Below are positions 17,726 through 39,204 of a DNA stretch of 64,000 bases, piece by piece. Under the pieces are notes generated by a model. The model did not search any database. It had not been told where the DNA came from and saw only the letters and a list, made by a program, of their open reading frames with translations. Within the stretch, counting starts at the first letter, position 1. Every line of letters begins with the position of its first letter. Source of the DNA: Minisyncoccota bacterium (GTDB taxonomy: Bacteria > Patescibacteriota > Minisyncoccia > Phycocordibacterales > UBA2100); NCBI GenBank assembly GCA_022842645.1, contig JALHPE010000003.1, forward strand, positions 10,445 to 74,444, in the 5' to 3' direction. The position numbers and the translations under genes are program-made.

Positions 17726-17764
17726 AAGACTGTGGAATACGGGGTTGGCGTGAGGGTGTAGAAT

Positions 17765-23371: not shown

Positions 23372-23380
23372 ATGAATAAT

Positions 23381-23405
23381 CGCTATCGAATAATGTTCGA
23401 TAGCG
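23381..23405. promoter_or_regulatory. perfect inverted repeat CGCTATCGAA-N5-TTCGATAGCG (candidate operator)
   Basis: 10-bp arms, 10 bp upstream of the start of minus-strand gene 22586..23371, at the edge of a 390-bp non-coding region. Confidence 0.3.
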
Positions 23406-23764: not shown

Positions 23765-24163
23765 TTAACTTGCCTTAATTTGAAAGTTATACATTCCCAT
23801 GCCGCACACGCCTTGTATGTTTTCGCCGGATTGGAGAGTGCCGAGATCAATCACTTCCTCACCTGTCGGTTGTAGTATTTTCTGGAATCCAATTGAACGA
23901 ACGACAAGAGACGCGGAACAATCATAGGTGCCATTAGTTTTCACCACCAGTTTAGTTGGTATGCCGCTTTTGATCTGCGTCACGCGCGGAGAATATCCGC
24001 CCTTTGCGGTTATGGTCACATACTGCACGCCGTCTTTGATCTCAATATTTTGTGACTGTTCGTTTCCGTCTCCTGAGGAGCTTGAGCTGTCGGATACGAA
24101 ATACAAAGTACCTCCAATGAGAGTCATGCTTACGATAATGGATAAGATGGTGCTTTTTTGCAT
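23765..24163 (-). CDS. secreted cupredoxin-like domain protein
   Basis: 132 aa. N-terminal TM/signal, Ser-rich linker, then a beta-sandwich-like domain with Cys/Met (VCGMGMY) at the C-terminus, as in cupredoxin_1 proteins commonly next to copA. Confidence 0.5.
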   Translation of the reverse strand: MQKSTILSIIVSMTLIGGTLYFVSDSSSSSGDGNEQSQNIEIKDGVQYVTITAKGGYSPRVTQIKSGIPTKLVVKTNGTYDCSASLVVRSIGFQKILQPTGEEVIDLGTLQSGENIQGVCGMGMYNFQIKAS

Positions 24164-24180
24164 AGATCGGTTGGTAAACT

Positions 24181-25185
24181 CTATATGTTAAATAAGGGGT
24201 CAATGACACCGAGACCGGCAAGCCCCGCGAGGAGCGCGAAAGCCCCGAGACCGATGACCACGACACCCGCCGACGCGAAGAACAGAGGCGCATGTCTTGA
24301 GTGAGCCAGTGAAGCCGATCCAAACGAAAGAAGCGCAAGCACCGGAAGCGTGCCGAGCGCGAACGCGGTCATGATCAAGAGTCCCGAGAGAAATGAGCCG
24401 CTTGAGAGCGCGGCGATCTGCATCGTCTGGGTGAATCCGCATGGGAGAAAGAATGTGCCAACACCCAGAAGAAACGGTGCCATGCTTGTATGCTCTACGC
24501 TACGGAAAAAATCGAAAACTCCCGACGGTAGAGCGATCATATTCTTCTCAAACACCCCGACCAGATTAAGTCCGAGCAGAATCATCACGATTGATGCGAT
24601 GATCCCGAGGATCGCGGTCGCGGTAAAACTTATGCCGATCGCGCTTCCGATAGCCCCAAGGATGCCACCGAGCACGGCAAAACCGAGAAGGCGTCCTGCG
24701 TGGAAGAGCATCATGGGCTTCACATCGCTTGTATTGTCTTGAGAGACACTCGCGGAGAGAGAAAGGACAAGCCCGCCCACCACCGCAAGGCAACTCGAAA
24801 TGGACGCAACGAGCCCTATGATAAAGCCAGTTATGGGCGTCACCGTTCCGCCTAGACCGAAATTTACTATCCCTGATTTCTGCACGATGATAAAGAGGGC
24901 GAGGAACGCGAGTCCGATGGGAAGCGCCTGCCAAATGACGCTGTCTTTCTTCTCACGAGCCTTCTTCTCGACAGAGAGCGCATAGCCGCTGCTTTTTATT
25001 TTCTCAGTCAATAGTTCCGCGAGCGTATGCGGACTCTCTTCGAGCGTCGTGTCGAAAGAGACGGTCTCGCGCTTCAAGTCGACACTCGCACGCTCGATGC
25101 CAACCTGTTCGTTCAGCGCATCTTCGATGAAGATCTTACAGGACGCACAGTGAGTGCCGGAGACGTGAAAGGTGTATGTTTTCAT
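24181..25185 (-). CDS. heavy-metal-associated (HMA) domain fused to a DsbD_2/CcdA-like polytopic membrane domain
   Basis: N-terminal TFHVSGTHCASCKIFIEDAL (HMA with CxxC). Membrane part has Cys in TM helices (SSCLAVVGG, FFLPCGFTQ) like the CcdA/DsbD family. Confidence 0.6.
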   Translation of the reverse strand: MKTYTFHVSGTHCASCKIFIEDALNEQVGIERASVDLKRETVSFDTTLEESPHTLAELLTEKIKSSGYALSVEKKAREKKDSVIWQALPIGLAFLALFIIVQKSGIVNFGLGGTVTPITGFIIGLVASISSCLAVVGGLVLSLSASVSQDNTSDVKPMMLFHAGRLLGFAVLGGILGAIGSAIGISFTATAILGIIASIVMILLGLNLVGVFEKNMIALPSGVFDFFRSVEHTSMAPFLLGVGTFFLPCGFTQTMQIAALSSGSFLSGLLIMTAFALGTLPVLALLSFGSASLAHSRHAPLFFASAGVVVIGLGAFALLAGLAGLGVIDPLFNI

Positions 25186-25190
25186 GAGTG

Positions 25191-25526
25191 TTATTCGAAT
25201 TCTTTACCGAACCGATAAAAGACGACCCCCGCCACCGCCCATGCCAAGGGAAGCCAGAGCGGTATTGCGAAAAACGCCGTATCCTGCCACAACTGCGCTC
25301 TGCTGAATTGGGTCATGCCGATCTCGATCAGAGCCCCGAGCGTTCCGGCGGTCAGAAAGAGCGCAAGCTCGGGCTTTGTGTGTTTGGAACTGAGGAAAAG
25401 ATACACGGCATAGAGCGCGATGAACGCGAGCGCGACGAGCTCATTGCCATGCGTCATCGTCTCGATAATGAAGAAAGCGAGAAGAGGCAGGAAGTATTTG
25501 AGTGCGATGAAGATGTATTTTTTCAT
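25191..25526 (-). CDS. small hypothetical membrane protein
   Basis: 111 aa, three predicted TM helices. Confidence 0.3.
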   Translation of the reverse strand: MKKYIFIALKYFLPLLAFFIIETMTHGNELVALAFIALYAVYLFLSSKHTKPELALFLTAGTLGALIEIGMTQFSRAQLWQDTAFFAIPLWLPLAWAVAGVVFYRFGKEFE

Positions 25527-25533
25527 GGCATGT

Positions 25534-27825
25534 TCATAGTTTTACCCTCTTGATTCTCAGCGAGTTCGCGACGACCGTGACGCTCTCGAACGCCATGATA
25601 GCTCCTGCGACGGCAGGGCTCAGGGTCCAGCCGAAAAACGGATAGAGGACGCCTGCAGCGACGGGAATGCCAACTGAGTTGTATCCGAACGACCAGATGA
25701 GGTTCTGCCATATCGTCCGCTTCGTCTTCTTCGCGAGATTGATAGCTTCTGCCACTTTCCCGATATCGCCCTTGAGCAACACGATGTCCGAGCTTTCGAT
25801 AGCGATGTCAGAGCCGTCGCTCATGGATATCGCCACATCAGCCTGCGCGAGCGCGGGAGAGTCGTTCACGCCGTCGCCGATCATAGCGACGATGAGGCCT
25901 TTCTTCTGGAGATCCCCGATGATCCTCAGCTTATCTTCCGGCTTTACATCCGTATACGCTTCGTCAATACCAAGACTTTTGGCAACAGCTTCCCCGGTTT
26001 TCTTGTGATCCCCCGTCGCCATGATCACCTTCAGTCCCAACGACTTCAGTTTTGCTATTTCCGCTTTCGCCTCCGCTTTGATCGTGTCGTGGATCTTTAC
26101 GAGCGAGAGCACCTCGGTATCGTTCGACAGATACAGTTCACGGCCGCTCTCGAAACGCCCATCCTGAAAGTCTTTCCGTATCTGTTCCTGCGATTGCCTG
26201 ATCGTTTCTCCTATGTATCCGATGGAGCCAAGATAATAGGCTGTACCATCATGTATTGCCTTCAGGCCCTTACCCGGGAGTTCTGTAATCTCGGAAACGG
26301 TGAGTTCTTTTGCGTCTGCATCCTTCAGCCACAGAGCAACACTTGCCGAAACAGGATGCTTTGATGATTTTGTCATCGAGTAAATGACGGATTGTTTGAA
26401 ACTCGTATCAAGCGAGTGACACATATGACCCTCGTCCTTGCAGAATATCCCCTCGATGGAGAGCCTGTTTTCCGTCAGCGTCCCGGTCTTGTCGAAGACG
26501 ATAGCGTTCACGCTCGCGAGTTTCTCAAGGCTTTCGGCGTTCTTGATGAGGATGCCCCGACGCGCGCCCGCCCCGACGCCAGTGATGATCGCCGTCGGTG
26601 TCGCAAGCCCTAAGGAGCACGGACACGCGATCACAAGTACCGCCATGGTGGTGGCAAGCGCGAGTGCGAATGCCTGCGAGAATCCGAGTACGCCAGGACC
26701 GAAGATCATCCATGACGCAAACGTAATGACTGCAATAACCAAAACGACGTAGACAAAGTAGCCAGAGATCCTATCGGCTATTTTTTCGATCGGTGCCTTC
26801 GAGTTCTGGGCATTCTCGACGATAGTGATGATATGCGAGAGCGCGGTATCTTTCGTCTCTTTCTCCACCTTTACTTTAAGCAAACCTTGGAGATTTTGCG
26901 TGCCCGCGAACACAGCGGCTCCCAAAGCTTTATCAACCGGCACCGACTCTCCCGTCAGGTTCGATTCATCGATACTCGATGCGCCGAACACGACCATGCC
27001 ATCTACCGGAATGCGTTCGCTCGGCTTCACGATGACCACATCGCCGATCTTGACGTTCTCTATAGCGATCTCCATCTCTTTCCCATCACGCTCGACGAGC
27101 GCGGTCTTGCTCGTGAGTTCTGCCAGTTTCTGGAGTGATTCGTTGGTCTTGCGTTTGGCGCGCGTTTCGAGGAATTGGCCGAGGGCGATGAGTCCGATGA
27201 CGATGATGACGACATCATAGAAATTCGAACTGACATCCAGGTAGGGTGCCAGCTGTGCCTCGAATGCGGTAACAGCGAAAGAGTATATGAAAGCGATGAT
27301 AGTCGAGATGCCGACCAGCACGTCCATGTTGGCAATGCCGGTCCGGAGGAATATCCAAGTTGCCTTGATGTATCTGCGTCCGATGCCGAAGAGGACAAAG
27401 GTCGCGAAGATCGGCATCAGGTGGTGGAACGCCTCATAGAGCGTCTCCGGCATTTCGGGCAGGATCCTGAAGTCAGAGAGCACGTCCCACGCCATCATCA
27501 CGAAAGAAAAGATGACCATCGGGATGACGAACCGCATCTCGAACGCCATCGCGTTTTCCTTGGCGTCTTTGCCGTCCATGCGCGCGTGATCCATTCCCAC
27601 CGCTTCTTTTTTGACGACATCTTCGAACGTGTAGCCGAAGGGCGAAATGGCGGCGCTCAGGGATTCGATAGGAACCGGCGGTCCTGAAAAGACCACGCGG
27701 GCTTTTTCCTGAGCGAGCCCGACCGATACAGACTCGACCCCCGGCACTTTCGAGACTTTGTTCTGAATAAGCGAGACACAACTCGCGCAGTGCATCCCGA
27801 TGACTTTATAGGTGTGTTCGGCCAT
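25534..27825 (-). CDS. copA: copper-translocating P1B-type ATPase
   Basis: N-terminal HMA (YKVIGMHCASCV), membrane CPC motif (IACPCSLGLATP), DKTGTLT phosphorylation site, GDGVNDSPAL hinge. Start set at the internal Met MAEHTYK (27825). Confidence 0.9.
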   Translation of the reverse strand: MAEHTYKVIGMHCASCVSLIQNKVSKVPGVESVSVGLAQEKARVVFSGPPVPIESLSAAISPFGYTFEDVVKKEAVGMDHARMDGKDAKENAMAFEMRFVIPMVIFSFVMMAWDVLSDFRILPEMPETLYEAFHHLMPIFATFVLFGIGRRYIKATWIFLRTGIANMDVLVGISTIIAFIYSFAVTAFEAQLAPYLDVSSNFYDVVIIVIGLIALGQFLETRAKRKTNESLQKLAELTSKTALVERDGKEMEIAIENVKIGDVVIVKPSERIPVDGMVVFGASSIDESNLTGESVPVDKALGAAVFAGTQNLQGLLKVKVEKETKDTALSHIITIVENAQNSKAPIEKIADRISGYFVYVVLVIAVITFASWMIFGPGVLGFSQAFALALATTMAVLVIACPCSLGLATPTAIITGVGAGARRGILIKNAESLEKLASVNAIVFDKTGTLTENRLSIEGIFCKDEGHMCHSLDTSFKQSVIYSMTKSSKHPVSASVALWLKDADAKELTVSEITELPGKGLKAIHDGTAYYLGSIGYIGETIRQSQEQIRKDFQDGRFESGRELYLSNDTEVLSLVKIHDTIKAEAKAEIAKLKSLGLKVIMATGDHKKTGEAVAKSLGIDEAYTDVKPEDKLRIIGDLQKKGLIVAMIGDGVNDSPALAQADVAISMSDGSDIAIESSDIVLLKGDIGKVAEAINLAKKTKRTIWQNLIWSFGYNSVGIPVAAGVLYPFFGWTLSPAVAGAIMAFESVTVVANSLRIKRVKL

Positions 27826-27826
27826 A

Positions 27827-28093
27827 TTATTTGCGCTTGAGCTTGTATACCTTGAGAACCTCGTCTTTCGCTTTACCGGTCTGACCCGACGACATCTGAT
27901 GATGCACGCAGTGGTCGAGATGGTTTTCAAGTAAGAGATCCTCGACATTGGAGAGCCCCTGCTTTACCGCCGAGGTCTGCGTAATCACATCGATGCAATA
28001 CGTATCACTGCCGATCATCTTCTGGAGCCCGCGCACCTGTCCTTCGATAAGCTTGAGGCGACGGATGGCTTTCGCCTTACTTTTCTCGTCCAT
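27827..28093 (-). CDS. csoR: CsoR/RcnR-family metal-sensing transcriptional repressor
   Basis: About 89 aa. RLKLIEGQVRGLQKMI...C...H...C pattern of CsoR. Stop is 1 bp from the copA start (operon). Confidence 0.8.
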   Translation of the reverse strand: MDEKSKAKAIRRLKLIEGQVRGLQKMIGSDTYCIDVITQTSAVKQGLSNVEDLLLENHLDHCVHHQMSSGQTGKAKDEVLKVYKLKRK

Positions 28094-28145
28094 GTATTTC
28101 ATACACACCAAATATACCCCCTGGGGGTATTGGGGTCAAATCTGT

Positions 28146-28373
28146 TCAGATGAAGTCGAAGATGTTCTCCAAGAGGCCGCTACGTTCGTTTTCCTCGACG
28201 CGCCCACGCCCCTCGGACCTTCTCTCACCGCCTTGCGACGCTGAGTCTCGTTCGATGATCTTGTCCAATTCGCCTCTATCGAGCCAGATTCCGCGGCATG
28301 TGGGGCAATAATCAATTTCGATTCCTTGGCGCTCCATCATCTGGAGTGCAGTATCGTCAATGGGACATTTCAT
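28146..28373 (-). CDS. TFIIB-type zinc-ribbon domain protein
   Basis: 75 aa. CPIDDT...CPTCRGIWLDRGELDKI (zf-TFIIB-like) plus acidic/Arg-rich tail. Confidence 0.5.
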   Translation of the reverse strand: MKCPIDDTALQMMERQGIEIDYCPTCRGIWLDRGELDKIIERDSASQGGERRSEGRGRVEENERSGLLENIFDFI

Positions 28374-28410
28374 AGGTAGTATTTGTGATCATTTCTTTAA
28401 TACTGTACGG

Positions 28411-29598
28411 CTATTGCAGCATCTTCCGGTATTCGCCCGTCGCCGTATTAAATGCGGGCAGTTCTGAGCCGGAAAGCGGTTCTCCACGCGGGAACTCGGC
28501 TGTGAGAGGATTCACGGGGTTTCCGTTCTCGAACATCGCATACTGGAGATGCGGTCCAGTCGAGATGCCAGTCGACCCGACATAGCCGACAACATCGCCC
28601 TGTAAGACATCGACACCCTTTTTCACACCTTTAGCAATGCTGGAAAGATGCGCATACTGCGTCAGATAGTTTCCATGCTTCAGCTCGACGGTAATGCCGA
28701 GGCCGCCTTTCGAACCCGCTACGCTCACCGTCCCATCTGCCGTTGCAATGACCGGCGTTCCCGAAGGTGCTGCGTAATCGATCGCGCGATGCGGGGTAAC
28801 CTGTTTGGTGACCGGATTCGTCCGCTGATAGCTGAAGCCGGAGCTTATCCGCGCGTAGTTCAGGGGTGATTTGAGGAACTGACGGACAAGAGAGTTTCCA
28901 TCGGTATCGTAGAACGCATCCTGGTAACGGAACGCTTCGAACGCCTTGCCGTCATTGATGAATCGAGCCGCGAGCACGTTGCCTGCGCCAGCATCTTTTC
29001 CATCCAATGAGCGTTTTTCGTAGACGATAGAGAATGAATCGCCCTCGCGAATATCGGTCGCGAAATCGATGTCGCCGGAGAAGATGCTCGCGAGTTCGAG
29101 CGTCACCTTGTCCTCGATCCCAACACTTTCTGCTGCGGCGAACAATGAATCCGCTATTGTTCCTTTCGCAGCCACGACCTCAATTTCATATTCAATGGGT
29201 TGCTTCGATGCGAAGAATTGGCTTCCGTTTTTCTCCACTACAACGACCTCGTCGTCCGAGATCGGATATTCGATAGCCGCGAGAGCTTTCTCGGCAAAAA
29301 TGAATCGGATTATTTGTCCCGCACGGATCGTCGTGAAGTCGTAGACACCGCTCGTCGCTTCCAGGATTGCTTGAACCTCCTCGAATGGAATGCGCGCCGC
29401 TTCACCGACCGTCGCGAACGTGTCACCCGACTGTATGACGTATTCCTCGACCTGAGTATCAGCGGCAGGCTCGGCGCGTGTGGCACCGGTGTGGGCGACG
29501 TACACAATCTCCTTGGTAACGATTTGCAGCAGTACCAATGCCGCGACCACTGAGGCGGAGATCGCACATAGCGACGTGATAAGTACGGTTCGTCTCAT
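28411..29598 (-). CDS. M23-family peptidoglycan endopeptidase
   Basis: 395 aa. N-terminal TM. C-terminal HRAIDYAAPSGTPV...GDVVGYVGSTGISTGPHLQY (HxxxD and HxH of LytM/M23). Confidence 0.8.
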   Translation of the reverse strand: MRRTVLITSLCAISASVVAALVLLQIVTKEIVYVAHTGATRAEPAADTQVEEYVIQSGDTFATVGEAARIPFEEVQAILEATSGVYDFTTIRAGQIIRFIFAEKALAAIEYPISDDEVVVVEKNGSQFFASKQPIEYEIEVVAAKGTIADSLFAAAESVGIEDKVTLELASIFSGDIDFATDIREGDSFSIVYEKRSLDGKDAGAGNVLAARFINDGKAFEAFRYQDAFYDTDGNSLVRQFLKSPLNYARISSGFSYQRTNPVTKQVTPHRAIDYAAPSGTPVIATADGTVSVAGSKGGLGITVELKHGNYLTQYAHLSSIAKGVKKGVDVLQGDVVGYVGSTGISTGPHLQYAMFENGNPVNPLTAEFPRGEPLSGSELPAFNTATGEYRKMLQ

Positions 29599-29600
29599 GG

Positions 29601-30242
29601 CTAGTAATCAACGTAATACCTAATGCTTGCCTTCGCCTTCAGCTCCGCAAGGAACGTACCTGCAAGCCGGTCCACTTTTTCTTCGCGTATCTGTTCTTTG
29701 ATCTTCTTTCGTGCCTCTCTTTCCTCTTCCTTCGGAATTGCTATTTTGTTATCCGTAATATAGGCGTCGATCTCCTCTTCACTCACGTCCGCCTTTTCGC
29801 CAAGGAGTTTTTCGAGCGTTAAGTGTTCTATTAATTGATTTCGCATGTCTTTTTCCGTGATGCCCTGTTGTTGAAGCTGGTCCTCAAGAGTCGAACCGTT
29901 TGCTACCATTTGCGATTCGATCGATTGTATTTCACCCGTGAGTTCGCTTTCATCGATAACAATGTTCCGTGCACGCGCTTCGTCAGCGATGAGTTTTTTG
30001 GTTATTACTGCGTCAATGGCTTGCTGTCCGGCCTGCCGTTCAAGATCTCGAATGATCGCGATGCGGCTGATGGGTTTTCCATTTACCGTCGCCGCGACGA
30101 CATATCCCTGCATGACAAGGAGTGCACCGAGAATGAGCACAGCGACAACGCCGAGTGCGATGAAGGTCGTCTTCCGGTTTTTGAAGCCGCTTTTTATGGC
30201 AACAGGTTGCGCAGATGCCTCTTCTGTTTTTTGATCTTCCAT
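29601..30242 (-). CDS. SurA N-terminal-domain-like periplasmic chaperone
   Basis: 213 aa, N-terminal TM, helical chaperone-like domain. No PPIase signature. Confidence 0.4.
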   Translation of the reverse strand: MEDQKTEEASAQPVAIKSGFKNRKTTFIALGVVAVLILGALLVMQGYVVAATVNGKPISRIAIIRDLERQAGQQAIDAVITKKLIADEARARNIVIDESELTGEIQSIESQMVANGSTLEDQLQQQGITEKDMRNQLIEHLTLEKLLGEKADVSEEEIDAYITDNKIAIPKEEEREARKKIKEQIREEKVDRLAGTFLAELKAKASIRYYVDY

Positions 30243-30276
30243 AGTGTCGTAATCAGATATTGTTAATGACGAATAC

Positions 30277-30840
30277 TTACGCCGCTCTGTTCTTTCGGAG
30301 TACCACGAATGCCAGCCCCGAGAGCATCAACATGCTTCCGAAGACCATGATGCCGAGGAATGGAATCGTGGCGAAGCCGAAGATGAGGATTGGCGAATCC
30401 GTGCACGCGGGCATGAGGCCTCCGTACGAACATGGAAGCGTGAGTGTGTTTCCGAGGACGAACCGCTGGAAGTGGTAATAGTAATGATAGAGCGCGTACC
30501 AGAGGCCGAAGCCCGAGAGGATAGCGACGGTCACATGCGCTTCACGCGTCTTGTACCACAGAGCGACTGGTGCGATGACGGCGATAGGATACAGGAATAT
30601 TCGCTGCCACCAGCACAATTCGCAGACCGGCGTCTCGTACGCAAGTTGGAAGATGAGGGTTCCGACGACTGATGCGATGCCAATCGCCGCAATCGCTGCT
30701 AGGTAACGTTCATACGAATGCGAGAGCAGATGTGCTCGAATCTTGGGGGATACGAGATACCCGATCCACGCAATTGCAAGTGTCGCGAAGAGTCCGACAG
30801 AGCCGAGGACAAGAAGTGTTGAGAATGCTTCAAGGGTCAT
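30277..30840 (-). CDS. dsbB: disulfide bond formation protein B
   Basis: 187 aa, four TM helices, CELCWWQRIFLYP periplasmic-loop Cys pair as in BdbC/DsbB, second Cys pair in loop 2. Confidence 0.7.
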   Translation of the reverse strand: MTLEAFSTLLVLGSVGLFATLAIAWIGYLVSPKIRAHLLSHSYERYLAAIAAIGIASVVGTLIFQLAYETPVCELCWWQRIFLYPIAVIAPVALWYKTREAHVTVAILSGFGLWYALYHYYYHFQRFVLGNTLTLPCSYGGLMPACTDSPILIFGFATIPFLGIMVFGSMLMLSGLAFVVLRKNRAA

Positions 30841-30844
30841 ACGG

Positions 30845-31504
30845 CTACTTGGTTTTATCTAACTCCGCTTGGATGAGCGCCTTGAATGCCTCGTAACTTT
30901 GAGGATTCTGGATTTTTGTGCCCTGGACGAACAACGACGGCGTGCTGTTGTTGCCAAGCTTTTCGCTATTATCGAAGTCGCGCTGTACGCGCGCTTTGGT
31001 TGATGGATCAGCGACATCCGCTTTGAATTTCTCCATGTCGAGCCCAATCTGCTCTGCGTACGCTTCAAACACCTGTGGCGTCGGCATCTGCTTGTTGCCC
31101 CACTTTTCCTGATTCTCGAAGAGCACGTCATGCATCTCCCAATACTTGCCTTGCTTCGAGGCCGCTTCGACGGCGATCGCAGCCGTCATACTGTTCTTGT
31201 GCCCAGGCAGTGGGAAGTAGCGCGTCACGATGCCCAAATCATTCGGGAATTCCGTGCCGAGCTGTTTGATGAGCGGGTAATACGCGCCGCATGCCTCGCA
31301 CTCGAAGTCGAGGTACTCGACGAGCGTCACTTTCGCCTCGGGATTTCCTTTTACATGATCGTCCGCGACGATGTTCAGGATACCCGCCGCTTCCGCGCTG
31401 GTTGCGGGAGTCGGGGCGGGATTGAGTAATTTGTTGGAGAAAAGGAGTCCAATGATAACGACTGCACCAAGTCCCCACCAGATATGCGATTGTTTGATTT
31501 TCAT
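30845..31504 (-). CDS. DsbA-family thiol:disulfide oxidoreductase
   Basis: 219 aa, signal anchor, thioredoxin-fold active site FECEACGAYYP (CxxC). Confidence 0.75.
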   Translation of the reverse strand: MKIKQSHIWWGLGAVVIIGLLFSNKLLNPAPTPATSAEAAGILNIVADDHVKGNPEAKVTLVEYLDFECEACGAYYPLIKQLGTEFPNDLGIVTRYFPLPGHKNSMTAAIAVEAASKQGKYWEMHDVLFENQEKWGNKQMPTPQVFEAYAEQIGLDMEKFKADVADPSTKARVQRDFDNSEKLGNNSTPSLFVQGTKIQNPQSYEAFKALIQAELDKTK

Positions 31505-31541
31505 ACGATTTTATTTCACTACGTAATAATTTGTAATTTTG

Positions 31542-32081
31542 TTACGTCGCACACACCGCGGGATTCGTAATCTGCCGCGCTGAGAGATATACGGAGAACG
31601 CCAGAAGAAGCGCTCCGATGATCCCGAATTCGCTTCCTCCGAGCGGCAGAAGCGCCAGCGCGCCTGTTGCTCCTACGAGAGCAAGCGCTCCTCCCAGCAG
31701 GAGCGTACCGCAGGCGGCGCATCCCACACCCAGGACACCGCTTCCGATGCCGAGAACGCCAGTCCACATGCTATGCCACGTACGCGCAATCTTCCGCCGC
31801 AGATAGTAGACCGTCATCGCCACATACATCCCGAAGAGGATCGCGATGACTACCGTGTAGAGGGCGGAGAGCGGCGTGAAATTCGTCGTTATCGAACCCA
31901 AGAGACTTACGGGTAGCGCGAACTTTTCAGACCATGAGGTGCTTGGAGAGAGCGCGATACGCGCGATAAGGCCGAGGTTCGGAAGCCATGTCGCAAGGGC
32001 AAAGACGAGCGCGCTCGTTGCAATAGCGAGCGCGAGATACGCAGGCCTTGTGAACACAGTGCGGAATGCTCGTGTCACCAT
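31542..32081 (-). CDS. hypothetical polytopic membrane protein
   Basis: 179 aa, Gly/Ala-rich TM helices, paired Cys (GCAACG). Function unknown. Confidence 0.35.
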   Translation of the reverse strand: MVTRAFRTVFTRPAYLALAIATSALVFALATWLPNLGLIARIALSPSTSWSEKFALPVSLLGSITTNFTPLSALYTVVIAILFGMYVAMTVYYLRRKIARTWHSMWTGVLGIGSGVLGVGCAACGTLLLGGALALVGATGALALLPLGGSEFGIIGALLLAFSVYLSARQITNPAVCAT

Positions 32082-32083
32082 AC

Positions 32084-32779
32084 TTATTTGTCCTTCTGCG
32101 CGATGTCGATTAATTGCTGCACCGATTCATACGGTTGTGCGCCCGAGAGCGGATATTTTTTTCCGCTTTTCGAGACGACGATGCTCCACGGCGTGCCGTT
32201 GCCGCCGGTTGCCTGTGCATTCTGCACCTCGTCCTCGATGTGCTCGTCGTATCGTGTGCTCGCAAGGCATTCGTTGAATTGTGCAACGTCGAGTCCCACG
32301 AACTCTGCGATTTTGGGCAATTCTGCCACGTCGAGTCCGTCGTTCGCAGGAGTTATCGCGAAGAGCCGGTCAAGATATTTCCAGAATGCGTCGTTGCCGC
32401 CGAGTTCGTTGGCGCATTCTGTTGCGACGGCTTCTTTGCGCGCCTTTTTGTGCAGCTGATCGAGCGGGAACTGTCGATAGACCCATGCAACATCGCTGTT
32501 TTCCTCGACGACTTGCTTCATCGTCTCATGGAATCGTTTGCAGAACGGGCATTCGGTATCCGAATATTCGACGATTTTGACGGGCGCATCCGGATTGCCA
32601 CGTACATGATCGGACGCGGAAATGGGAGTCATCGCTTCCAGATCTCCGGTTGGAGCTTGTGCTTCCGGTTGGTTCGCACCGGTGCTACTCGCGCTCCCGC
32701 TCGTATAGAAGACAGCTCCCGCGATGAGCGCTCCGGCGATGACGATAGCGGCAGGTATTGCTACGTTAGTTTGTGTCAT
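32084..32779 (-). CDS. DsbA-family thiol:disulfide oxidoreductase (second copy)
   Basis: 231 aa. DTECPFCKRFH CxxC active site in a thioredoxin-like fold, N-terminal TM anchor. Confidence 0.75.
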   Translation of the reverse strand: MTQTNVAIPAAIVIAGALIAGAVFYTSGSASSTGANQPEAQAPTGDLEAMTPISASDHVRGNPDAPVKIVEYSDTECPFCKRFHETMKQVVEENSDVAWVYRQFPLDQLHKKARKEAVATECANELGGNDAFWKYLDRLFAITPANDGLDVAELPKIAEFVGLDVAQFNECLASTRYDEHIEDEVQNAQATGGNGTPWSIVVSKSGKKYPLSGAQPYESVQQLIDIAQKDK

Positions 32780-32788
32780 GGTTGTTTT

Positions 32789-33175
32789 TTATCGTCCGAA
32801 CCACTGCGTCAGCCACCCCTGCATGGTGGTGATCTCAGAAGTCTGGGCGTTGATAATATCTTCGGCCATTTTCTTCAGTTCGGGGCGTTTCGTGCTACCT
32901 GCGATCAGCTGCGCCATGTCTATCGCGCCCTGATGATGCACGATCATGCTCTCCAGGAAGGCTGCGTCGCGCGCATCGCCGGTTTGCTTTTTGAGATCCG
33001 AGAGCATGCTCGACATCGACGAGTCCATCGAATGCTCTCCGGACATAGCGGGAGCGGAGTCGCTTGTGCCGACATGGGTCGGTTCGGTCGGCGTTTTGAA
33101 TTGCGCGATACCGTATCCCGCGCCTCCTCCCACAAGAAGCGATACAATCATTGTTGAGAGAATTGTGTTGTTCAT
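32789..33175 (-). CDS. DUF305-family protein (copper-resistance associated)
   Basis: 128 aa. MIVHHQGAIDMAQL resembles the DUF305 MIPHHQGAI.MA core. N-terminal TM. Confidence 0.6.
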   Translation of the reverse strand: MNNTILSTMIVSLLVGGGAGYGIAQFKTPTEPTHVGTSDSAPAMSGEHSMDSSMSSMLSDLKKQTGDARDAAFLESMIVHHQGAIDMAQLIAGSTKRPELKKMAEDIINAQTSEITTMQGWLTQWFGR

Positions 33176-33239
33176 ATGGATTAAGAAATTGATACTAAAA
33201 ACACGCCACAGAAGCGGCGTGCCGGATTATTATCTTCAG

Positions 33240-33662
33240 CTAGAAAAGCTTCGGGTTAAGGATGCCGCGCGCAAACACTTCCTGCAGCGCGATGTGCGTC
33301 GGGATATATCCGTGAGCCGCGACGGGACGAAACATCGAATCTGGGGGAAAGAAAGCCCGCCGCAGAAGCGGTAGGAATCCGATGACGGCGGCAAGGAACG
33401 CGAACAGAATAGTTGAGAAATCTGCTTGGACCGGCAGAGCATTGAACATGTTTTGCGCAGCCGCGACATGTTGCATCGGCGTCATGTTGCAGATGACGAC
33501 TCCCGGCATGAAGGGACATCCCCCCATCTGACCATTCATCTCCTGCCCCATGCCGATATGCGAGACACCGATGAAGCCAGCAAATAGATAGCCGACAAGG
33601 ACGAGACAAACCGCAACGGATGCAATCTCACGTCTCAATAACATGCGTACGAGTATAGCCAT
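33240..33662 (-). CDS. hypothetical membrane protein
   Basis: 140 aa with 3-4 TM helices and His/Met-rich loops. Confidence 0.35.
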   Translation of the reverse strand: MAILVRMLLRREIASVAVCLVLVGYLFAGFIGVSHIGMGQEMNGQMGGCPFMPGVVICNMTPMQHVAAAQNMFNALPVQADFSTILFAFLAAVIGFLPLLRRAFFPPDSMFRPVAAHGYIPTHIALQEVFARGILNPKLF

Positions 33663-33772
33663 AAAGCGGGCGATATGCCAGCATGCCGGTCAAGCTCAAT
33701 AAAAGCTTAGCTAGACTGGGCATACCTGCCCGCAGACGCTGAAATGGAAACTTGACTGTATGGCATATTTAA

Positions 33773-34441
33773 TTGTATAATATACATATGGAGACTGCTT
33801 CCCCTCACCCGGAGAAACGACCCTCAAAAGCGGTATTTCTCGCCACAACAGTGGTGGTTTTCGTCATGTCGCTCTCTGCCGCAGATTCCGTCGGCTTCGT
33901 CCCGTATTACGTCGATGGCACCGAACCGGCACGTTCGCGTGTCGCAATTTCCGAATTACCGGAACTTGGTGAGGAACCAGTGACCCAAGCGGCCGAACCT
34001 GAAGTCGGCGTCCTGCCGACGCGCATCCGCAGCTCAACCATCAATCTTGACTTGCCGGTACAGGATTCTGCCACGCGCGACATCGATGAGTTGAATGAGA
34101 TGCTTAAGGACGGCCCCGTTCGCTATGTCGATTCCGCAAAGCTCGGCGAGAAAGGCAACGTGCTCATATTCGGCCACTCGTCACAACTTCCGGTTGTGCA
34201 TAATCAGATGTACAAGGCATTTAATCGCGTGCCGGAACTGAAAGAGGGCGACACGATCACGCTTGAAGGCGGCGGCAAAGAATTCGTTTACACTGTTCGT
34301 TCGGTGAAAAAGGTTGACGCAAACGAGGGTGTGATCGATCTCTCCAAAGACGGCAATCGCCTTACGCTCGTTACCTGCGACACGCTGACGGGCAAAAGCG
34401 CACGGTTCGTCCTCGAAGCCGAGCTCGTCGGGTCGTACTAA
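33773..34441 (+). CDS. sortase-family transpeptidase
   Basis: 222 aa. N-terminal TM. Catalytic His context NVLIFGHSS, TLxTC motif LTLVTCDTL, and downstream Arg. Confidence 0.75.
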   Translation: MYNIHMETASPHPEKRPSKAVFLATTVVVFVMSLSAADSVGFVPYYVDGTEPARSRVAISELPELGEEPVTQAAEPEVGVLPTRIRSSTINLDLPVQDSATRDIDELNEMLKDGPVRYVDSAKLGEKGNVLIFGHSSQLPVVHNQMYKAFNRVPELKEGDTITLEGGGKEFVYTVRSVKKVDANEGVIDLSKDGNRLTLVTCDTLTGKSARFVLEAELVGSY

Positions 34442-34503
34442 AGACTTTTCTTGACATCTAACTTGGTAATCGAGAAGCACGCGCGGGTCTGGCGGCCCGT
34501 TTG

Positions 34504-35562
34504 CTATTCAAGAATATCGTATATGCGTTCGTCTTCCGCGCCGAATTTCCACGGTAACAATCCTCCGACGCCGAATTCTCTCGCAAGCTCATATTTCGGC
34601 TTGAAACTCCGCACATCCTCGAACCATACTTCGTGGAGAGCGCCCGCGTCATCGGTGTACTTGAAAAACGGCGCTTCAACACTCGTATCGTATTCGATGG
34701 TTGCATTTTTTTGCGTAGCAAGAACGAGCGCGCTTTGGTAATCGACGCCATTCGCCGTGTGCCACTCTCCGTGGTCGTTCGTCCAATCGTATCCGTCCAT
34801 CGGAATGCCAAGCAAGATCTTCTTCATAGGGACGCCCTGCGATGTGGCGTATTCCAATACGTTCCGCATCCATCCGATTTCAGCGTTGGCTCCCGGATCG
34901 CTCGTTTCGTAATGCTGGTCGTAGGTCATATAGGCAAGATAGTCGGCTCCCGTCAGTGATGGAATATTTTGCCCTCGCGTTTCTGTTCCTTGCAGCTGGG
35001 CGTGGATGGCGACGACAAGCATCTTGCCCCGCGAATCGAGGGCGGCACCGAGTTCGTTCACGAACGCTGTATAATCCGCTGCCTGCGAATCTTGGAGGAA
35101 TTCGTAGTCAATGTTCACGCCGTCAAAACCCTTAGATTCGATGAGTTCGACAATGGATGCAATATGCACGCGACGTGCCTCTGCGGTGTCAATGACCTTT
35201 TGTACGCGACCGGAGTCCCAATTTCCTTCATCGGGGAGGTTCGCGATCAAGGCGAGCGCTTTGACGTCTTTGTCCTGCGCGAAGCGCACGATAGACATGT
35301 CTTCTAAGGCGGATCCGTACTTTCCGATGTTGCCATTCTCATCCAACCGGTACCAGAACAATACGAGCCCGTCCATGTCGTCAACGTGCTTCTGGAACAT
35401 GGCATAGGCGCGCGGTTGATCCCAATACGGGATCGAACCGACCACAAAAAACGGATCTTCGTTTCGACTCGGTTGCGATGAGTCGCGCTCGCGGATACTT
35501 CCTATCGCGAAAACCAGTACTGCAAGCCCGCCTACGGCAATGAATATGAATTTTGGGGGCAT
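34504..35562 (-). CDS. GH18-like glycoside hydrolase (chitinase/YaaH-type), membrane anchored
   Basis: 352 aa. N-terminal TM. DGVNIDYEF matches the GH18 DGxDxDWE catalytic motif. Confidence 0.5.
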   Translation of the reverse strand: MPPKFIFIAVGGLAVLVFAIGSIRERDSSQPSRNEDPFFVVGSIPYWDQPRAYAMFQKHVDDMDGLVLFWYRLDENGNIGKYGSALEDMSIVRFAQDKDVKALALIANLPDEGNWDSGRVQKVIDTAEARRVHIASIVELIESKGFDGVNIDYEFLQDSQAADYTAFVNELGAALDSRGKMLVVAIHAQLQGTETRGQNIPSLTGADYLAYMTYDQHYETSDPGANAEIGWMRNVLEYATSQGVPMKKILLGIPMDGYDWTNDHGEWHTANGVDYQSALVLATQKNATIEYDTSVEAPFFKYTDDAGALHEVWFEDVRSFKPKYELAREFGVGGLLPWKFGAEDERIYDILE

Positions 35563-35568
35563 ACGTTA

Positions 35569-36138
35569 TCAGATCGTGCGTCTCTCCATCCACTCATCGA
35601 GAACCTTATCGATTGTTTTCCAAGTTACGCGCGGCATATCGACGGTGCGATTATATGGCTGGTCGTAGAGGATATGCGTCCATTCTTGTGCCCATATGCC
35701 GGAGACCGACGGAGAATCATCGATAAGAATATCGCCCTTAACGAAGGTCTTATCCCGTGTGAGTATGATCTTGCCGGTCCAATCTCTGCCCAGATGTTTT
35801 TCAACCCATTCGTATTTTTCAGGAACGCAAAACTGCCATTCCCACGTCGGAGCAGTTACGATCTGTACATGAGTCACTTGGTCCGCTAGCCGCTCGAGCC
35901 CCTCTCGCGCTCCTTCAATGAGCGGTAAATCTCGAAAGAATCCTTCCTGAAGACGGAGCGATTTTATCTTTTTCTGATCGTCGTACGGAAAGTTATATTC
36001 AAGGTTGAATTCAGCAAGAGTGTTGCGGTCGGGTAATTTTATTTCGGGATACTGTTTCGCGATCGCTTGGTAGAAACCGGCAAGCTGATCCGCAATCACG
36101 TTGTCGAGATCAACAAGGGCTATGAATGGTTTTTTCAT
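35569..36138 (-). CDS. HAD-family 5'(3')-deoxyribonucleotidase-like protein
   Basis: 189 aa. N-terminal FIALVDLDNVIAD HAD motif I and NT5C-like overall pattern. Confidence 0.6.
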   Translation of the reverse strand: MKKPFIALVDLDNVIADQLAGFYQAIAKQYPEIKLPDRNTLAEFNLEYNFPYDDQKKIKSLRLQEGFFRDLPLIEGAREGLERLADQVTHVQIVTAPTWEWQFCVPEKYEWVEKHLGRDWTGKIILTRDKTFVKGDILIDDSPSVSGIWAQEWTHILYDQPYNRTVDMPRVTWKTIDKVLDEWMERRTI

Positions 36139-37064
36139 ACATGCGTTTCGGTCTCCTTTTTCCTTCTCTGGCGTTCAAGCACTTCTTCGAAGTTGGAATA
36201 AACGCCTTCGTGAACCTCTGGACGGCTCATGACCGCCCCTGTAGCCATAAGTTCGTATGCGAGCTTAGGGATGTCAGCGCCCGAACGAATCGTTATGCCC
36301 ATGCCGCCAGATCCACGCGCATTTATCTCAGTCAACTTGTATCCTTCAGAGCCTCGCATGAACTGGAAATTAACGGGACCGACAAATATCAAGCGCTGTG
36401 CGAGGTCTTCGATCACCTTGATGAGCATTTCGTCTCGAAACACGCGTCCAGACACGCTGATTCCTTGATCGATCACGACGCGTATTCTCGGAACGGCGAC
36501 AACGAGTTTCCCGTCGAAATCAAACATCGCGTCCACGGATACTTCCGGGTTTTGGAGCAGTTCCTGAAATACATACGTTTCTTCAGGGATATCGCTCAAC
36601 TCCGCCGCATTAGTTACGACTTTCGTCCCTTTTCCGCCCCTGCCTATCGCAGGTTTCGCGAAGATCGGAAACGCATTAATTTCATTTTTCTTATAACGTT
36701 CTGGCAAGTGATCAGCGGCAATTTCATACATTCTATCCTTATTTGAGGTAAAGGAAATCGTTTTGAATGGTGACACCAGTACTCTACATCCGATGTCGCC
36801 TGCGCGTTCGCTGAGGAGGCACATTTCTTCGTCGACCGTCGGAATTATGCAATCTATGCGCTCGTCGTTGATGATGCGTTTCAGGATGTCGAGATATGTC
36901 GGGTCCGTCGCAAACGGCACGATATGGAATGAGCCGACGAGCGATTTTCCGATCGTATCTTCTTCGGCGCTTGTGCCCACCAGGTGAGCGCCATCGATCT
37001 GCGAGAGTGATTTGGCGAAACAAATGCCTGATGGTCCCCCGACAGCTGTAAGTAAGATTTTCAT
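36135..37064 (-). CDS. ATP-grasp domain protein
   Basis: 309 aa. MKILLTAVGGPSG pre-ATP-grasp start and central ATP-grasp fold. 4-bp overlap with the downstream gene. Confidence 0.6.
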   Translation of the reverse strand: MKILLTAVGGPSGICFAKSLSQIDGAHLVGTSAEEDTIGKSLVGSFHIVPFATDPTYLDILKRIINDERIDCIIPTVDEEMCLLSERAGDIGCRVLVSPFKTISFTSNKDRMYEIAADHLPERYKKNEINAFPIFAKPAIGRGGKGTKVVTNAAELSDIPEETYVFQELLQNPEVSVDAMFDFDGKLVVAVPRIRVVIDQGISVSGRVFRDEMLIKVIEDLAQRLIFVGPVNFQFMRGSEGYKLTEINARGSGGMGITIRSGADIPKLAYELMATGAVMSRPEVHEGVYSNFEEVLERQRRKKETETHV

Positions 37065-37154
37065 AGAGGTGATTATTGAGAGTAACGAATCTCTATGCGC
37101 ATATGCAGCATAGAAAACCGTGCCAGAAACGAGTCTGGCACGATAGAAATACCT

Positions 37155-37529
37155 CTAGTTGAGGAAGGTCGTTTTCAGATCGAGCGGCAAAGGCGCTGGG
37201 ACGTGATTGATTGCAGGGTGCACTGGAGTCGCATCCCGATAAGGCGGAGGGGCTGTAAGAGCGAGATTTGATACAACAGAAACTACCAAGGGCTGCTTTA
37301 TGAGCTGGAATTTTGGGACGATGGGAGTCGGAGAATGAGCCTCTATATATGTCGGCGGACTGTCATGGTCTTCGCCAGAATGCGGAAGAGTATCGTGATG
37401 TGATGCGTAGGAACCCGCCGTATCTGCTGATGCCACTAAGGCGAAATGATGCCCAGAAACCACAAGAGTACCCATTAACAAAACGCCAGCTATAAATCGG
37501 CTCACTTTTAATCCGGAAAGCACCTTCAT
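37155..37529 (-). CDS. hypothetical secreted protein
   Basis: 124 aa, N-terminal signal-like segment, Pro-rich. Confidence 0.3.
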   Translation of the reverse strand: MKVLSGLKVSRFIAGVLLMGTLVVSGHHFALVASADTAGSYASHHDTLPHSGEDHDSPPTYIEAHSPTPIVPKFQLIKQPLVVSVVSNLALTAPPPYRDATPVHPAINHVPAPLPLDLKTTFLN

Positions 37530-37665
37530 ACGCGACAGGCTACCAGAGAGCGACTGAAAGACAAGTGAACGAATGATTTACACCACTATGTGTAAAGTTG
37601 CCAACACCTGGGGTCTCTCGGACGCTCTGGACTCTTGGAGGGGTCTGCGTCATCCCTTGTGGTGT

Positions 37666-38991
37666 ATGAATACATATATAAGGCCCGTGGACAGCATTAG
37701 CAGGCAGGCTGTCCAAGCGCCCGTGAGAGTGAAGTACTGCCTGTATGCAAGAAAAAGCACAGAAAGCGAGGAGCGGCAGGTTTTGAGTATCGACAGCCAA
37801 ATCAAGGAGATGCTCCAGCTTGCGGATCGCGAGGGATTGGAGGTAGTCGAGCTTAAGAGAGAATCGCACTCAGCAAAGGAGACCGGCACGCGGCCGGTCT
37901 TCAATGAGATCGTCGAAGAACTGCGAGCTGGGAAGTACAATGGTATTCTGACATGGGCACCGGACCGTATTAGTAGGAACGCGGGCGACTTGGGCAAGAT
38001 CGTCGATCTCATGGACGCAGGTGGGTTGCAAGAAATTCGCACCTACAGCCAGAGCTTCAGGAACAACCCGAACGAGAAGTTCCTTTTGATGATTCTCGGT
38101 TCGCAAGCCAAGCTCGAAAATGACAACCGAGGTGTCAACGTAAAGCGCGGTCTTCGAACGCGCTGCGAGATGGGACTACGGCCGGGTGTTGCGCCAACGG
38201 GTTACTTCAACGAGAAGCTCGCCGAAAAGAAATGTCACGCGGTCATTGACCCCGTACGCGCACCGATCATCAAGCAGATGTTCGAGAAAGTAGCGAATGA
38301 CAAATGGTCGGGACGCAAGGTGCACCATTGGCTCAAGTTCGACCTTAACTTCAAGAGCAAAGGTAACAAGAATCTCTCGCTCGGTAACATCTACATCATT
38401 CTGCAGAACCCCTTCTACTACGGTACCTTCGAATACCCCGAAAAGAGTGGCAACTGGTATGAGGGCAAACATGAGCCGCTCATCACCAAAGAACTCTACG
38501 ACGCGGTACAGGCGCAACTCAAGCGTGACCACATCGTGCGCTCTGATATCAAGGAGTTCGCATTTACGAAACTCATGACCTGTGGCTCATGCCAATCGGG
38601 CGTCACCGCCGATGAGAAATTCAAGAAGCTGAAGGATGGTACATCAAACCGCTATGTGTACTACGGCTGCACGCGGCACAAGGACAAAGCTTGCAAGAAC
38701 GGGTATGTGCGCGAAGAAGAACTCATTACCCAAATGGTTAAAATCATGGATGAGGTTGATTTTAACAAGATAGCCATGCGGGAGAAGTTCGAGGCAGAGG
38801 TGGAACGACTGCGGAAGTTCCAGCACAGCTTCCTACATACGAAAGATACGAAGCCGGAAAAAGACATCGATCTCTGCGCATATGCGAAATACATCCTCAA
38901 GGACGGCAGCTTAACGGAGAAACGGGAACTCCTGCTGTGCATCAAGAGCAAACTCACGCTTACGAACGGGGTGCTGACGTTGGAGAAGTAA
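37666..38991 (+). CDS. large serine recombinase (integrase/resolvase family)
   Basis: Resolvase catalytic domain VKYCLYARKSTESEERQVLSIDSQ (Ser nucleophile) ...DRISRN, then recombinase domain and zinc-ribbon (TCGSCQSG...YYGCTRH), about 440-470 aa. Ends 87 bp from the 3' end of tRNA-Ser. Confidence 0.85.
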   Translation: MNTYIRPVDSISRQAVQAPVRVKYCLYARKSTESEERQVLSIDSQIKEMLQLADREGLEVVELKRESHSAKETGTRPVFNEIVEELRAGKYNGILTWAPDRISRNAGDLGKIVDLMDAGGLQEIRTYSQSFRNNPNEKFLLMILGSQAKLENDNRGVNVKRGLRTRCEMGLRPGVAPTGYFNEKLAEKKCHAVIDPVRAPIIKQMFEKVANDKWSGRKVHHWLKFDLNFKSKGNKNLSLGNIYIILQNPFYYGTFEYPEKSGNWYEGKHEPLITKELYDAVQAQLKRDHIVRSDIKEFAFTKLMTCGSCQSGVTADEKFKKLKDGTSNRYVYYGCTRHKDKACKNGYVREEELITQMVKIMDEVDFNKIAMREKFEAEVERLRKFQHSFLHTKDTKPEKDIDLCAYAKYILKDGSLTEKRELLLCIKSKLTLTNGVLTLEK

Positions 38992-39077
38992 TCGAGCAGA
39001 ATTCAAAAAGTTCGAATCCTTTTAGGGTTCGGACATATTTAGGGGAAACGGTCGCTAAACACCGTCGCCCTAGACTG

Positions 39078-39166
39078 CGGAGAGGGAGGGATTCGAACCC
39101 TCGAGACAGTTTGACCCGCCTAACACGTTAGCACCGTGCCGCTTTCGACCACTCAGCCACCTCTCC
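39078..39166 (-). tRNA. tRNA-Ser (anticodon GCU)
   Basis: Manual fold: acceptor GGAGAGG/CCTCTCC, 3-bp D-stem with GG loop, anticodon stem GCACG/CGTGT, loop GTGCTAA (U33, anticodon GCT, A37), long variable arm, T-arm GAGGG-TTCGAAT-CCCTC, discriminator G. CCA not encoded. Confidence 0.8.
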
Positions 39167-39204
39167 GTGTAGTCGATAGACTATCATGAAATGTCGGGTG
39201 CGCG

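Follow-up and report, generated by a model that had tools for sequence, protein, structure and literature searches.

A large serine recombinase gene converges on tRNA-Ser(GCU)

We analysed a 64,000-nucleotide stretch of a Minisyncoccota bacterium genome (the window; contig JALHPE010000003.1, positions 10,445 to 74,444), with a focus on a gene for a large serine recombinase (LSR), the tRNA-Ser(GCU) gene beside it and the accessory DNA to its left. The LSR gene is intact and occupies 37666..38991 on the plus strand. The maximal open reading frame (ORF) is longer (37573-38991, plus strand, 472 aa), and an alignment with 18 homologues puts the start at the ATG at 37666, which yields a protein of 441 aa beginning MNTYIRPVDS. 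Within the 472-aa frame, Pfam recognizes a Resolvase domain (PF00239, aa 57-201, 5.4e-19), a Recombinase domain (PF07508, aa 227-318, 5.8e-15) and a Zn_ribbon_recom domain (PF13408, aa 331-385, 3.6e-08), in agreement with the initial annotation, which had described a serine integrase of ~440-470 aa with these domains. The catalytic motif YARKS31T, containing Ser31, and the DRISR motif at 100-104 are invariant across 19 homologues. The zinc-ribbon cysteines are conserved as well, and the invariant ones in the homologue alignment include CGSC at 306. The protein matches the integrase family phrog_95 (3.8e-64), and its best match among solved structures is SPbeta SprA/YokA (9dxh), a remote similarity (1.8e-12) that aligns residues 27-364. 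The catalytic domain of the TP901-1 integrase also matches (2.7e-4), and the same three-domain architecture is found in the integrases SprA (YokA) of SPbeta, phiC31, Bxb1, A118 and TP901-1. Judged by its sequence, the window protein is a bona fide large serine recombinase.

A small resolvase, a Tn3-type resolvase or a small invertase (~180-200 aa with only a C-terminal helix-turn-helix, HTH) is ruled out by the 441-aa three-domain architecture. The initial annotation had allowed for a simple resolvase of a small transposon, and we considered this together with a TnpX-type transposase. The resolvase catalytic domain is what such an enzyme would share with the LSR, however, the full three-domain protein, the lack of any transposase or terminal inverted repeats found near the LSR in the window, and the strict preference of the family for tRNA 3′ ends described below make a transposon enzyme scarcely credible.

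The tRNA-Ser(GCU) gene lies at 39077..39166 on the minus strand (ARAGORN; Rfam RF00005, 56 bits) and is the putative integration target. Between the end of the LSR stop (38991) and the tRNA 3′ end (39077) are 85 nt, and the two genes converge. The orientation of the LSR toward the minus-strand tRNA had thus been read correctly, while its distance had been given as 87 bp. We refer to the interval 38992..39076 (minus strand) as the terminal segment; it contains the motif GTGTTTAGCGACCG at 39049-39062 (minus strand) and a hairpin, GTTCGAATCC...GGGTTCGGAC, and is a candidate for the element-side attachment (att) arm.

The island is absent from related genomes

With RecG as an anchor, 80 related metagenome loci were compared with the window by mapping the window genes and tRNAs onto each (compared loci and contigs carry L-numbers as labels). 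Three of them, L104, L105 and L112, encode a RecG 70-72% identical to that of the window and share the order PilB, PilO, PilN, PilM, PCD, ComF, tRNA-Ser(gct), holin-like, RecG, PKD protein, further genes, tRNA-Ile(tat), malic enzyme, FtsH. In these relatives ComF is followed almost directly by the tRNA, at a distance of ~190 nt in L105 and ~0.8-1 kb in L104 and L112, as opposed to ~26 kb in the window, where ComF ends at 12935. None of the window's genes between 12.9 and 39.1 kb lies between ComF and tRNA-Ser in any relative. The comparison with related genomes proposed in the initial annotation therefore turned up sites without the island, with ComF and tRNA-Ser 0.2-1 kb apart.

The core flanks are clear on both sides. 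On the left is the ComF-like phosphoribosyltransferase gene (12270..12935, plus strand), whose orthologues in L104, L105 and L112 are 50-56% identical and stand directly before tRNA-Ser. To the right of the tRNA are a gene for a Phage_holin_4_2-family membrane protein (39205-39543, minus strand) and RecG (39833-42025, plus strand), which are adjacent in at least 15 relatives, with or without an LSR. A holin-family protein beyond the tRNA had been pointed out previously; it is indeed present, but because it is a core neighbour of RecG in relatives without the island, it lies outside the element. The right boundary is the 3′ end of the tRNA itself, as similarity between occupied and unoccupied sites stops at the last tRNA base.

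The left edge is marked by a conserved element of ~150 nt (14439..14575, plus strand), which was identified through BLAST matches to L105, L104 and L130 and by alignment. It also occurs at 8363-8522 in L105, 7008-7178 (minus strand) in L104, 400-585 in L102 and ~1919-1990 (minus strand) in L130. In these four loci it lies 35-390 nt from the 3′ end of tRNA-Ser(gct) and is convergent with it, while in the window the distance is 24.5 kb. Since this tRNA-adjacent element has been displaced, and since similarity between the window and L104 stops at ~14575, we place the island at ~14576-39076. The predicted island would thus span roughly 14.6-39.08 kb and measure ~24.5 kb; with the genes at 12952-14362 included, it would reach as much as 26 kb. 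The LSR gene, predicted to encode a functional integrase, would form its tRNA-proximal end. GC content along the island runs from 47-50% to 53-55% to 50-52%, weak steps that define no clear boundary.

The ~150-nt element begins and ends with inverted sequence resembling the acceptor and T-arm of tRNA-Ser, and it carries two inverted 12-mers of the tRNA 3′ end, TTCGAATCCCTC at 14478-14489 and CCTCTCCGCAGT at 14514-14525. It has a central hairpin with three compensatory pairs and a long-range GGATTCG/CGAATCC helix; an Rfam search with it returned no family. A structured RNA, a relic of an att site and a miniature element are all conceivable identities for it. Beyond it, L105 and L104 contain a direct pseudo-copy of the tRNA 3′ end of 20-22 nt (20 nt in L105), which, from its sequence, looks like the scar of an earlier occupancy.

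As a separate observation, tRNA-Ser(gct) and the ~150-nt element have, as a unit, the opposite orientation with respect to ComF and RecG in L104, L112, L119, L124 and L129 from that in L105, L102 and the window. No LSR is present in the locus in any of these relatives. Past recombination between att-like sites in inverted orientation may have left this trace.

LSR homologues are associated with tRNA-Ser across Patescibacteria

The LSR belongs to a large family. A scan of species-representative genomes found at least 582 LSR loci, of which the 80 best (63-83% identity) were taken further, and the 120 best database clusters of homologues are 71-100% identical to the window protein. Record titles mostly name Patescibacteria, or candidate phyla radiation (CPR), groups. 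A minority name Gammaproteobacteria, Bacteroidetes, Methanoregula, Flavobacteriaceae and Rhabdochlamydiaceae, and we suspect that these are misbinned or mislabelled contigs.

tRNAs were called with ARAGORN on the 80 genome loci, and the 57 with at least 4 kb of sequence downstream of the LSR were counted. The first downstream tRNA is tRNA-Ser in 38, one of Gln, Trp, Asp or Asn in nine, and ten have none. All of the first downstream tRNAs (47/47) are on the strand opposite to the LSR and so converge with it, as in the window. The tRNA-Ser targets include the anticodons gct, tga, cga, gga and act. Upstream of the LSRs, 609 kb of sequence holds only four tRNAs and not one tRNA-Ser. Some genomes have two divergent LSR copies at different tRNAs (L015 and L029). 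Three mutually independent lines of evidence, namely the synteny, the behaviour of the family at tRNA-Ser and the packaging, methylase and copper genes that recur beside the LSR (see below), support an integrative-element boundary at the tRNA, where the initial annotation had put one.

The closest element to that of the window is L094. The two LSR proteins are ~94-97% identical while their genes are 82% identical at the DNA level, and the ratio of nonsynonymous to synonymous substitution rates (dN/dS) is 0.027 at a dS of 1.75, indicating that very strong purifying selection and not recent transfer underlies the similarity. In this closest element, a duplicated fragment of the LSR 5′ end (9471-9553 in L094; 15-72 in L095, with an ORF at 60-431) stands directly upstream of the full LSR, and in L095 it is called as a 123-aa 'Resolvase' ORF.

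A motif next to the tRNA is a candidate att arm

The terminal segment is shared with L094, where similarity extends over window positions 39004-39172, tRNA included, at 83.5% identity. There the segment follows tRNA-Ser and abuts it, despite three cargo genes (SMODS among them) between the segment and the LSR. Elements whose LSR is at least 77% identical to that of the window (the window, L008, L011, L014-L016, L094 and L097) have the motif type GTGTTTnGCGACCG, which in this clade stands at a fixed offset after tRNA-Ser of four isoacceptors. Those with an LSR at most 71% identical have a second type, ...TTTAGTATCGG..GACCC. A terminal motif follows 30 of 55 first-downstream tRNAs, only 1 of 49 other tRNAs in the same loci, and none of the 33 tRNA-Ser genes in loci without an LSR. 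L133, the sole RecG-anchored locus with a family LSR, has the motif. Because the motif follows LSR-adjacent tRNAs and is missing after tRNA-Ser where there is no LSR, we regard it as element-borne, and we read it, on this distribution, as the putative element-side att arm.

Given this, we propose that the LSR recombines a site on the element, of which the conserved arm would now abut the tRNA, with the 3′ end of the tRNA-Ser gene. The crossover may fall in the last tRNA bases or, as the pseudo-fragment in L105 hints, in the T-loop. Serine integrases need no long att repeats, and a distal direct repeat is typical of islands formed by tyrosine integrases. Integration by the LSR would be expected to leave no long duplication, as is usual for serine integrases, and phage large serine integrases likewise neither show nor are expected to show one. 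We found no long repeats flanking the island. LSR att sites are also pseudo-palindromic. The two ends of the island are mirror images, each with tRNA-3′-like sequence followed by AGT...GTGTTT, and this arrangement would fit a normal attL/attR pair.

The same mirror symmetry could be taken differently, with the LSR as an enzyme that serves the host, for example by inverting or rearranging DNA between inverted tRNA-Ser-like sites, and the island as incidental. Inverted tRNA-3′-like sequences do stand at both island ends, the unit of tRNA-Ser and the conserved element is inverted between relatives, and the LSR is unusually conserved for an integrase (63-97% identity; dN/dS 0.03). However, the relatives with an inverted tRNA have no LSR in the locus, and mirror-image ends are expected of ordinary attL and attR because att sites are pseudo-palindromic. 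The LSR is not universal, some genomes carry two divergent copies at different tRNAs (L015 and L029), and the flanking cargo is hypervariable. A role in host physiology is therefore improbable, and we return to the LSR as the putative integrase of the island.

A packaging and methylase backbone with variable cargo

Genes and domains were assigned with Pfam and PHROGs and RNAs with Rfam. The leftmost part of the island (14576..16102) consists of a bidirectional terminator-like hairpin (~14670-14706), a gene for a 188-aa membrane protein with no Pfam or PHROG match (14811-15377, minus strand) and 725 nt of non-coding DNA. A phage-like backbone follows at 16103..22578, all on the plus strand. It comprises a large terminase gene, TerL (16103-17725, phrog_38), a gene for a 252-aa protein, a ParB-N6/N4 methylase gene (18612-19961), a second methylase gene (19765-20688), a TerS-like HTH gene (20646-21089) and a second TerL gene (21070-22578, phrog_38), with the 252-aa gene between the first TerL and the ParB-methylase. 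The two TerL paralogues are full-length, bracket the methylase and TerS genes and are, in patches, 71-75% identical at the nucleotide level. The other members of the family have one TerL each, and the pair in the window may be a trace of tandem elements.

The cargo block of ~15 kb at 22586..37529 is almost entirely on the minus strand. It encodes a 261-aa protein, a LOOT RNA, a cupredoxin, DsbD/HMA, a copper P-type ATPase, an M23 peptidase, a SurA-like protein, DsbB, two DsbA proteins, a DUF305 protein, a sortase (plus strand), a GH18 protein, an NT5C protein, an ATP-grasp protein and a 124-aa secreted protein. The LOOT RNA (23438-23554, minus strand; Rfam RF03000, 65 bits against a gathering score of 46.4) sits in an intergenic region that had been flagged initially as a place to look for an att repeat. 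Just upstream of the LSR, at 35569-37064 (minus strand), the ATP-grasp gene (Ter-operon type, PF15632) overlaps the NT5C-family deoxynucleotidase gene by 4 nt; the pair is possibly a nucleotide-modifying or defence module. The neighbours named in the initial annotation, namely ATP-grasp, GH18, the copper and Dsb cluster and the phage packaging module, were all recovered with Pfam. Its suggestion that this DNA may be element-borne gains support from the absence of these genes between ComF and tRNA-Ser in relatives and from the recurrence of packaging, methylase and copper genes beside the LSR elsewhere.

To the left of the predicted island, between ComF and the ~150-nt element, genes for a DUF6671 protein and an NfeD-like membrane protein occupy 12952..14362 (minus strand). 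They are absent between ComF and tRNA-Ser in L104, L105 and L112, and an NfeD-like homologue lies 0.45 kb downstream of the LSR in L045. The segment is lineage-specific and its membership in the island uncertain; it may be an older accretion.

We compared the backbone across 85 genome loci and 67 loci from IMG/VR, the latter on contigs classed as viral. The order ParB-methylase, second methylase, TerS-like HTH, TerL, LSR on one strand is found in ~30 of the 85 genome loci and most of the 67 IMG/VR loci. The family backbone would accordingly be described as a ParB-methylase, an optional second methylase, a TerS-like HTH protein, TerL and the LSR, encoded on the same strand. Compact members have the LSR immediately after TerL and the tRNA after the LSR, and in some of them a divergent LexA/CI-type repressor gene with an S24 peptidase domain lies upstream. 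One pair, L057 and L078, is 87% identical from the repressor to the LSR stop (~6.3 kb) and has different flanks. As a pair that defines the element ends it leaves the left edge fuzzy, with identity starting ~5 kb upstream of the LSR.

Cargo lies on one side or the other of the LSR, in the interval towards TerL or in that towards the tRNA, and differs from locus to locus. Type I restriction-modification (R-M) systems are present at 16 loci, bacteriophage exclusion (BREX)-like or type IIG genes in L008, and diversity-generating retroelement (DGR) reverse transcriptases, a SMODS gene and Ymh are among the further cargo. L011 and the four loci L071, L078, L079 and L087 carry a copper cluster. Those four have cupredoxin and DsbD/HMA genes 61-83% identical to those of the window, and in them homologues of the cupredoxin, DsbD/HMA and copper ATPase (43-83%) together with a homologue of the 261-aa protein flank the LSR.

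Two further observations concern the viral-classified contigs. Some hold two LSR-family copies (L186/L188, L190/L221, L199/L207, L212/L217, L226/L229 and L249/L250). In L214, L216, L219, L222, L225 and L251, TerL matches in two pieces separated by ~1.6 kb, a pattern that an intein, a homing endonuclease or a split gene may explain.

The gene content bears on whether the island is a complete or recently inactivated temperate prophage with a serine integrase. TerS, TerL, a ParB-methylase and an integrase are all present, and IMG/VR classes 67 related contigs as viral. Nevertheless, Pfam and PHROGs recognized no portal, capsid, tail or lysis gene between 14.6 and 39.1 kb, and compact members run from TerL to the LSR and tRNA with no virion genes in between. 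Since these genes are missing, the island is not a complete prophage, and descent from a recently inactivated one is most improbable. With ~15 kb of copper-resistance, disulfide-bond and envelope cargo and no virion genes, it is better described as island-like or satellite-like, and probably composite.

A phage satellite similar to a phage-inducible chromosomal island (PICI) would use its own TerS and TerL to package the element into the capsids of a Patescibacteria helper phage, with the LSR for integration and excision. A TerS-like gene and full-length TerL in the absence of portal, capsid and tail genes would suit such a lifestyle, and so would the compact members of ~6.3 kb with their divergent LexA/CI-like S24 repressor, given that L057 and L078 are 87% identical over exactly that unit. 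Type I R-M, SMODS and Ymh defence cargo is also typical of satellites. Within the window's island, however, Pfam detected neither a primase nor a replication gene, and no helper-sensing or helper-interference gene was recognized. The window copy lacks the repressor and is bigger than typical satellites. Known satellites rarely encode TerL alone, and we know of no helper phage for these elements. We consider a satellite lifestyle for the TerS/TerL elements an attractive idea, suggested by their gene content, that is nonetheless on balance unlikely.

Integration, unity and present mobility of the island

We put at roughly 80% the probability that an island has inserted at the 3′ end of tRNA-Ser with the LSR as its integrase and is a member of a large element family specific to Patescibacteria, a reading drawn from gene content, synteny and the distribution of homologues. 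Several results weigh against it or limit it. The initial annotation had anticipated a direct repeat of the tRNA 3′ segment to the left; the 26-mer of the tRNA 3′ end has no second copy in the window at up to 3 mismatches, and only the inverted 12-mers at 14478-14525 were seen. Scans for a second att arm with the terminal motifs GTGTTTnGCGACCG and TTTAGTATCGGAG gave chance-level matches away from the tRNA, and the spacing at the two mirror-image ends differs by 2 nt. As no partner att arm emerges statistically, the left end rests on synteny, with relatives whose RecG is only ~70% identical. The LexA/CI-like repressor of the compact members is missing from the window copy. Same-species metagenome contigs from Logan are all 100% identical to the window and all have the island, and neither an empty site nor a circular form was seen among them. 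Finally, a history of several events, in which the LSR may have introduced only some of the island, is suggested by the second TerL, the GC shifts and the doubtful membership of 12952-14362.

The last of these points can be taken further. In a relic or composite, the LSR and the ~85-nt terminal segment would be a small integration module, and the other ~24 kb would come from separate events (tandem integrations, deletions, other transfers) and no longer form one mobile unit. DNA similarity to L094 is limited to the LSR gene and the terminal segment with the tRNA, which would be in line with such a history, as would the two TerL paralogues, the steps in GC content, the fixation of the island in all sampled contigs, and L105 and L104, where a pseudo-fragment of the tRNA 3′ end and remnants of 166-560 nt remain without an LSR. 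The very strong purifying selection on the LSR argues against a relic, however, and the same backbone order and cargo types recur with the LSR elsewhere. We regard such a relic or composite, with the whole no longer moving as one unit, as less likely than not. This reading refines the case for an LSR-borne island with respect to its unity and current mobility and does not contradict it.

Additional candidates for variation in populations did not hold up. No empty-site contig was found when the site was approached from the left side. L003 and L005, which end exactly at the tRNA 3′ base, were rejected as polymorphisms because they are 100% identical to the window, and their breaks at the tRNA are attributed to shared tRNA k-mers. 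The divergent tail at 2168-2190 of L006, inside the LSR gene, is an Illumina adapter (AGATCGGAAGAGC...) and was rejected as a variant. Among the IMG/VR loci, none showed the exact terminal repeats of a circular form. L198 has ends that match over 438 nt at only 93% identity, a level that speaks for tandem copies instead of a circle.

Relation to known integrative elements

A full-text search of the literature found no description of this LSR element family. Islands that are LSR-borne, target tRNA-Ser and combine cargo with a TerS/TerL/methylase backbone differ from SprA prophages, staphylococcal cassette chromosomes (SCC/Ccr), tycheposons and PICIs in recombinase class, target or backbone. Characterized large serine integrases mostly target protein-coding genes; compared with phage integrases, the window's family uses the 3′ end of tRNA-Ser of any isoacceptor, and its element lacks virion genes. 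SCCmec/Ccr cassettes are LSR-borne, insert at the 3′ end of a conserved housekeeping gene (rlmH), carry variable cargo and undergo accretion that leaves remnants. The window island resembles them in being LSR-borne, in its position at the 3′ end of a conserved gene, in its variable cargo and in its signs of accretion and remnants. It differs in phylum, in its target (tRNA-Ser instead of rlmH) and in having no ccrA/ccrB pair, and TerS, TerL and the methylases are absent from SCC. PICIs and other phage satellites share with the family an integrase, a divergent repressor (in compact members), packaging genes, defence cargo and a lack of virion genes, whereas the window element has a full TerL and no recognized primase, replication or helper-interference genes.

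Patescibacteria have very small genomes, and only a few have been cultured; genetic tools for them are almost lacking, and little has been described of their mobile elements. The tycheposons of Prochlorococcus are similar to the window's family in that they target tRNAs, including tRNA-Ser, in streamlined genomes and occur in cargo-carrying and PICI-like forms (bioRxiv 10.1101/2020.12.28.424599). Of 937 tycheposons, 910 use tyrosine recombinases, and many carry replication genes (bioRxiv 10.1101/2020.12.28.424599). The window's family instead has an LSR integrase and a methylase/TerS/TerL backbone, and no replication module was found.

We tentatively speculate that the LSR defines a previously undescribed family of mobile elements that extends across the phylum Patescibacteria. 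Its minimal unit of ~6 kb (LexA/CI-like repressor, one or more methylases, TerS, TerL and LSR) would target tRNA-Ser 3′ ends, serve as the main platform for defence, DGR and metal-resistance cargo and perhaps move as a phage satellite. The integrase would be under housekeeping-level constraint (dN/dS ~0.03), perhaps because its target is an invariant tRNA sequence. This broad proposal is somewhat less probable than not. If it is true, integration vectors for Patescibacteria could naturally be sought in a highly conserved serine integrase whose landing site, the tRNA-Ser 3′ end, is defined and universal, and a tRNA-targeting clade would be added to the serine integrases of genome engineering. 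The family would also be the main hotspot for the gain of R-M, CBASS (cyclic oligonucleotide-based antiphage signalling system)-like, DGR and copper-resistance genes in these bacteria. A TerS and TerL backbone without capsid genes leads to the testable idea that CPR bacteria host phage satellites.

Other features of the window

A DGR cassette lies to the left of ComF at 8734-11391. Its reverse transcriptase gene is at 8740-9789 (minus strand) and a bAvd-like accessory gene at ~9800-10167 (plus strand). The template repeat at 10166-10281 and the variable repeat at 10614-10729, in the 3′ end of the target gene (10612-11241, minus strand), are 96% identical, and on the coding strand all differences fall at template adenines. 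Palindromes of 33 nt (8734-8766 and 11359-11391, 94% identical) flank the cassette, which is absent between PilM and PCD in L104, L105 and L112. Near the start of the window, at 221-2398 (minus strand), a 725-aa ORF contains at least six degenerate repeats with a period of ~147 nt (49 aa) that are 60-84% identical, possibly encoding a beta-propeller or similar repeat protein.

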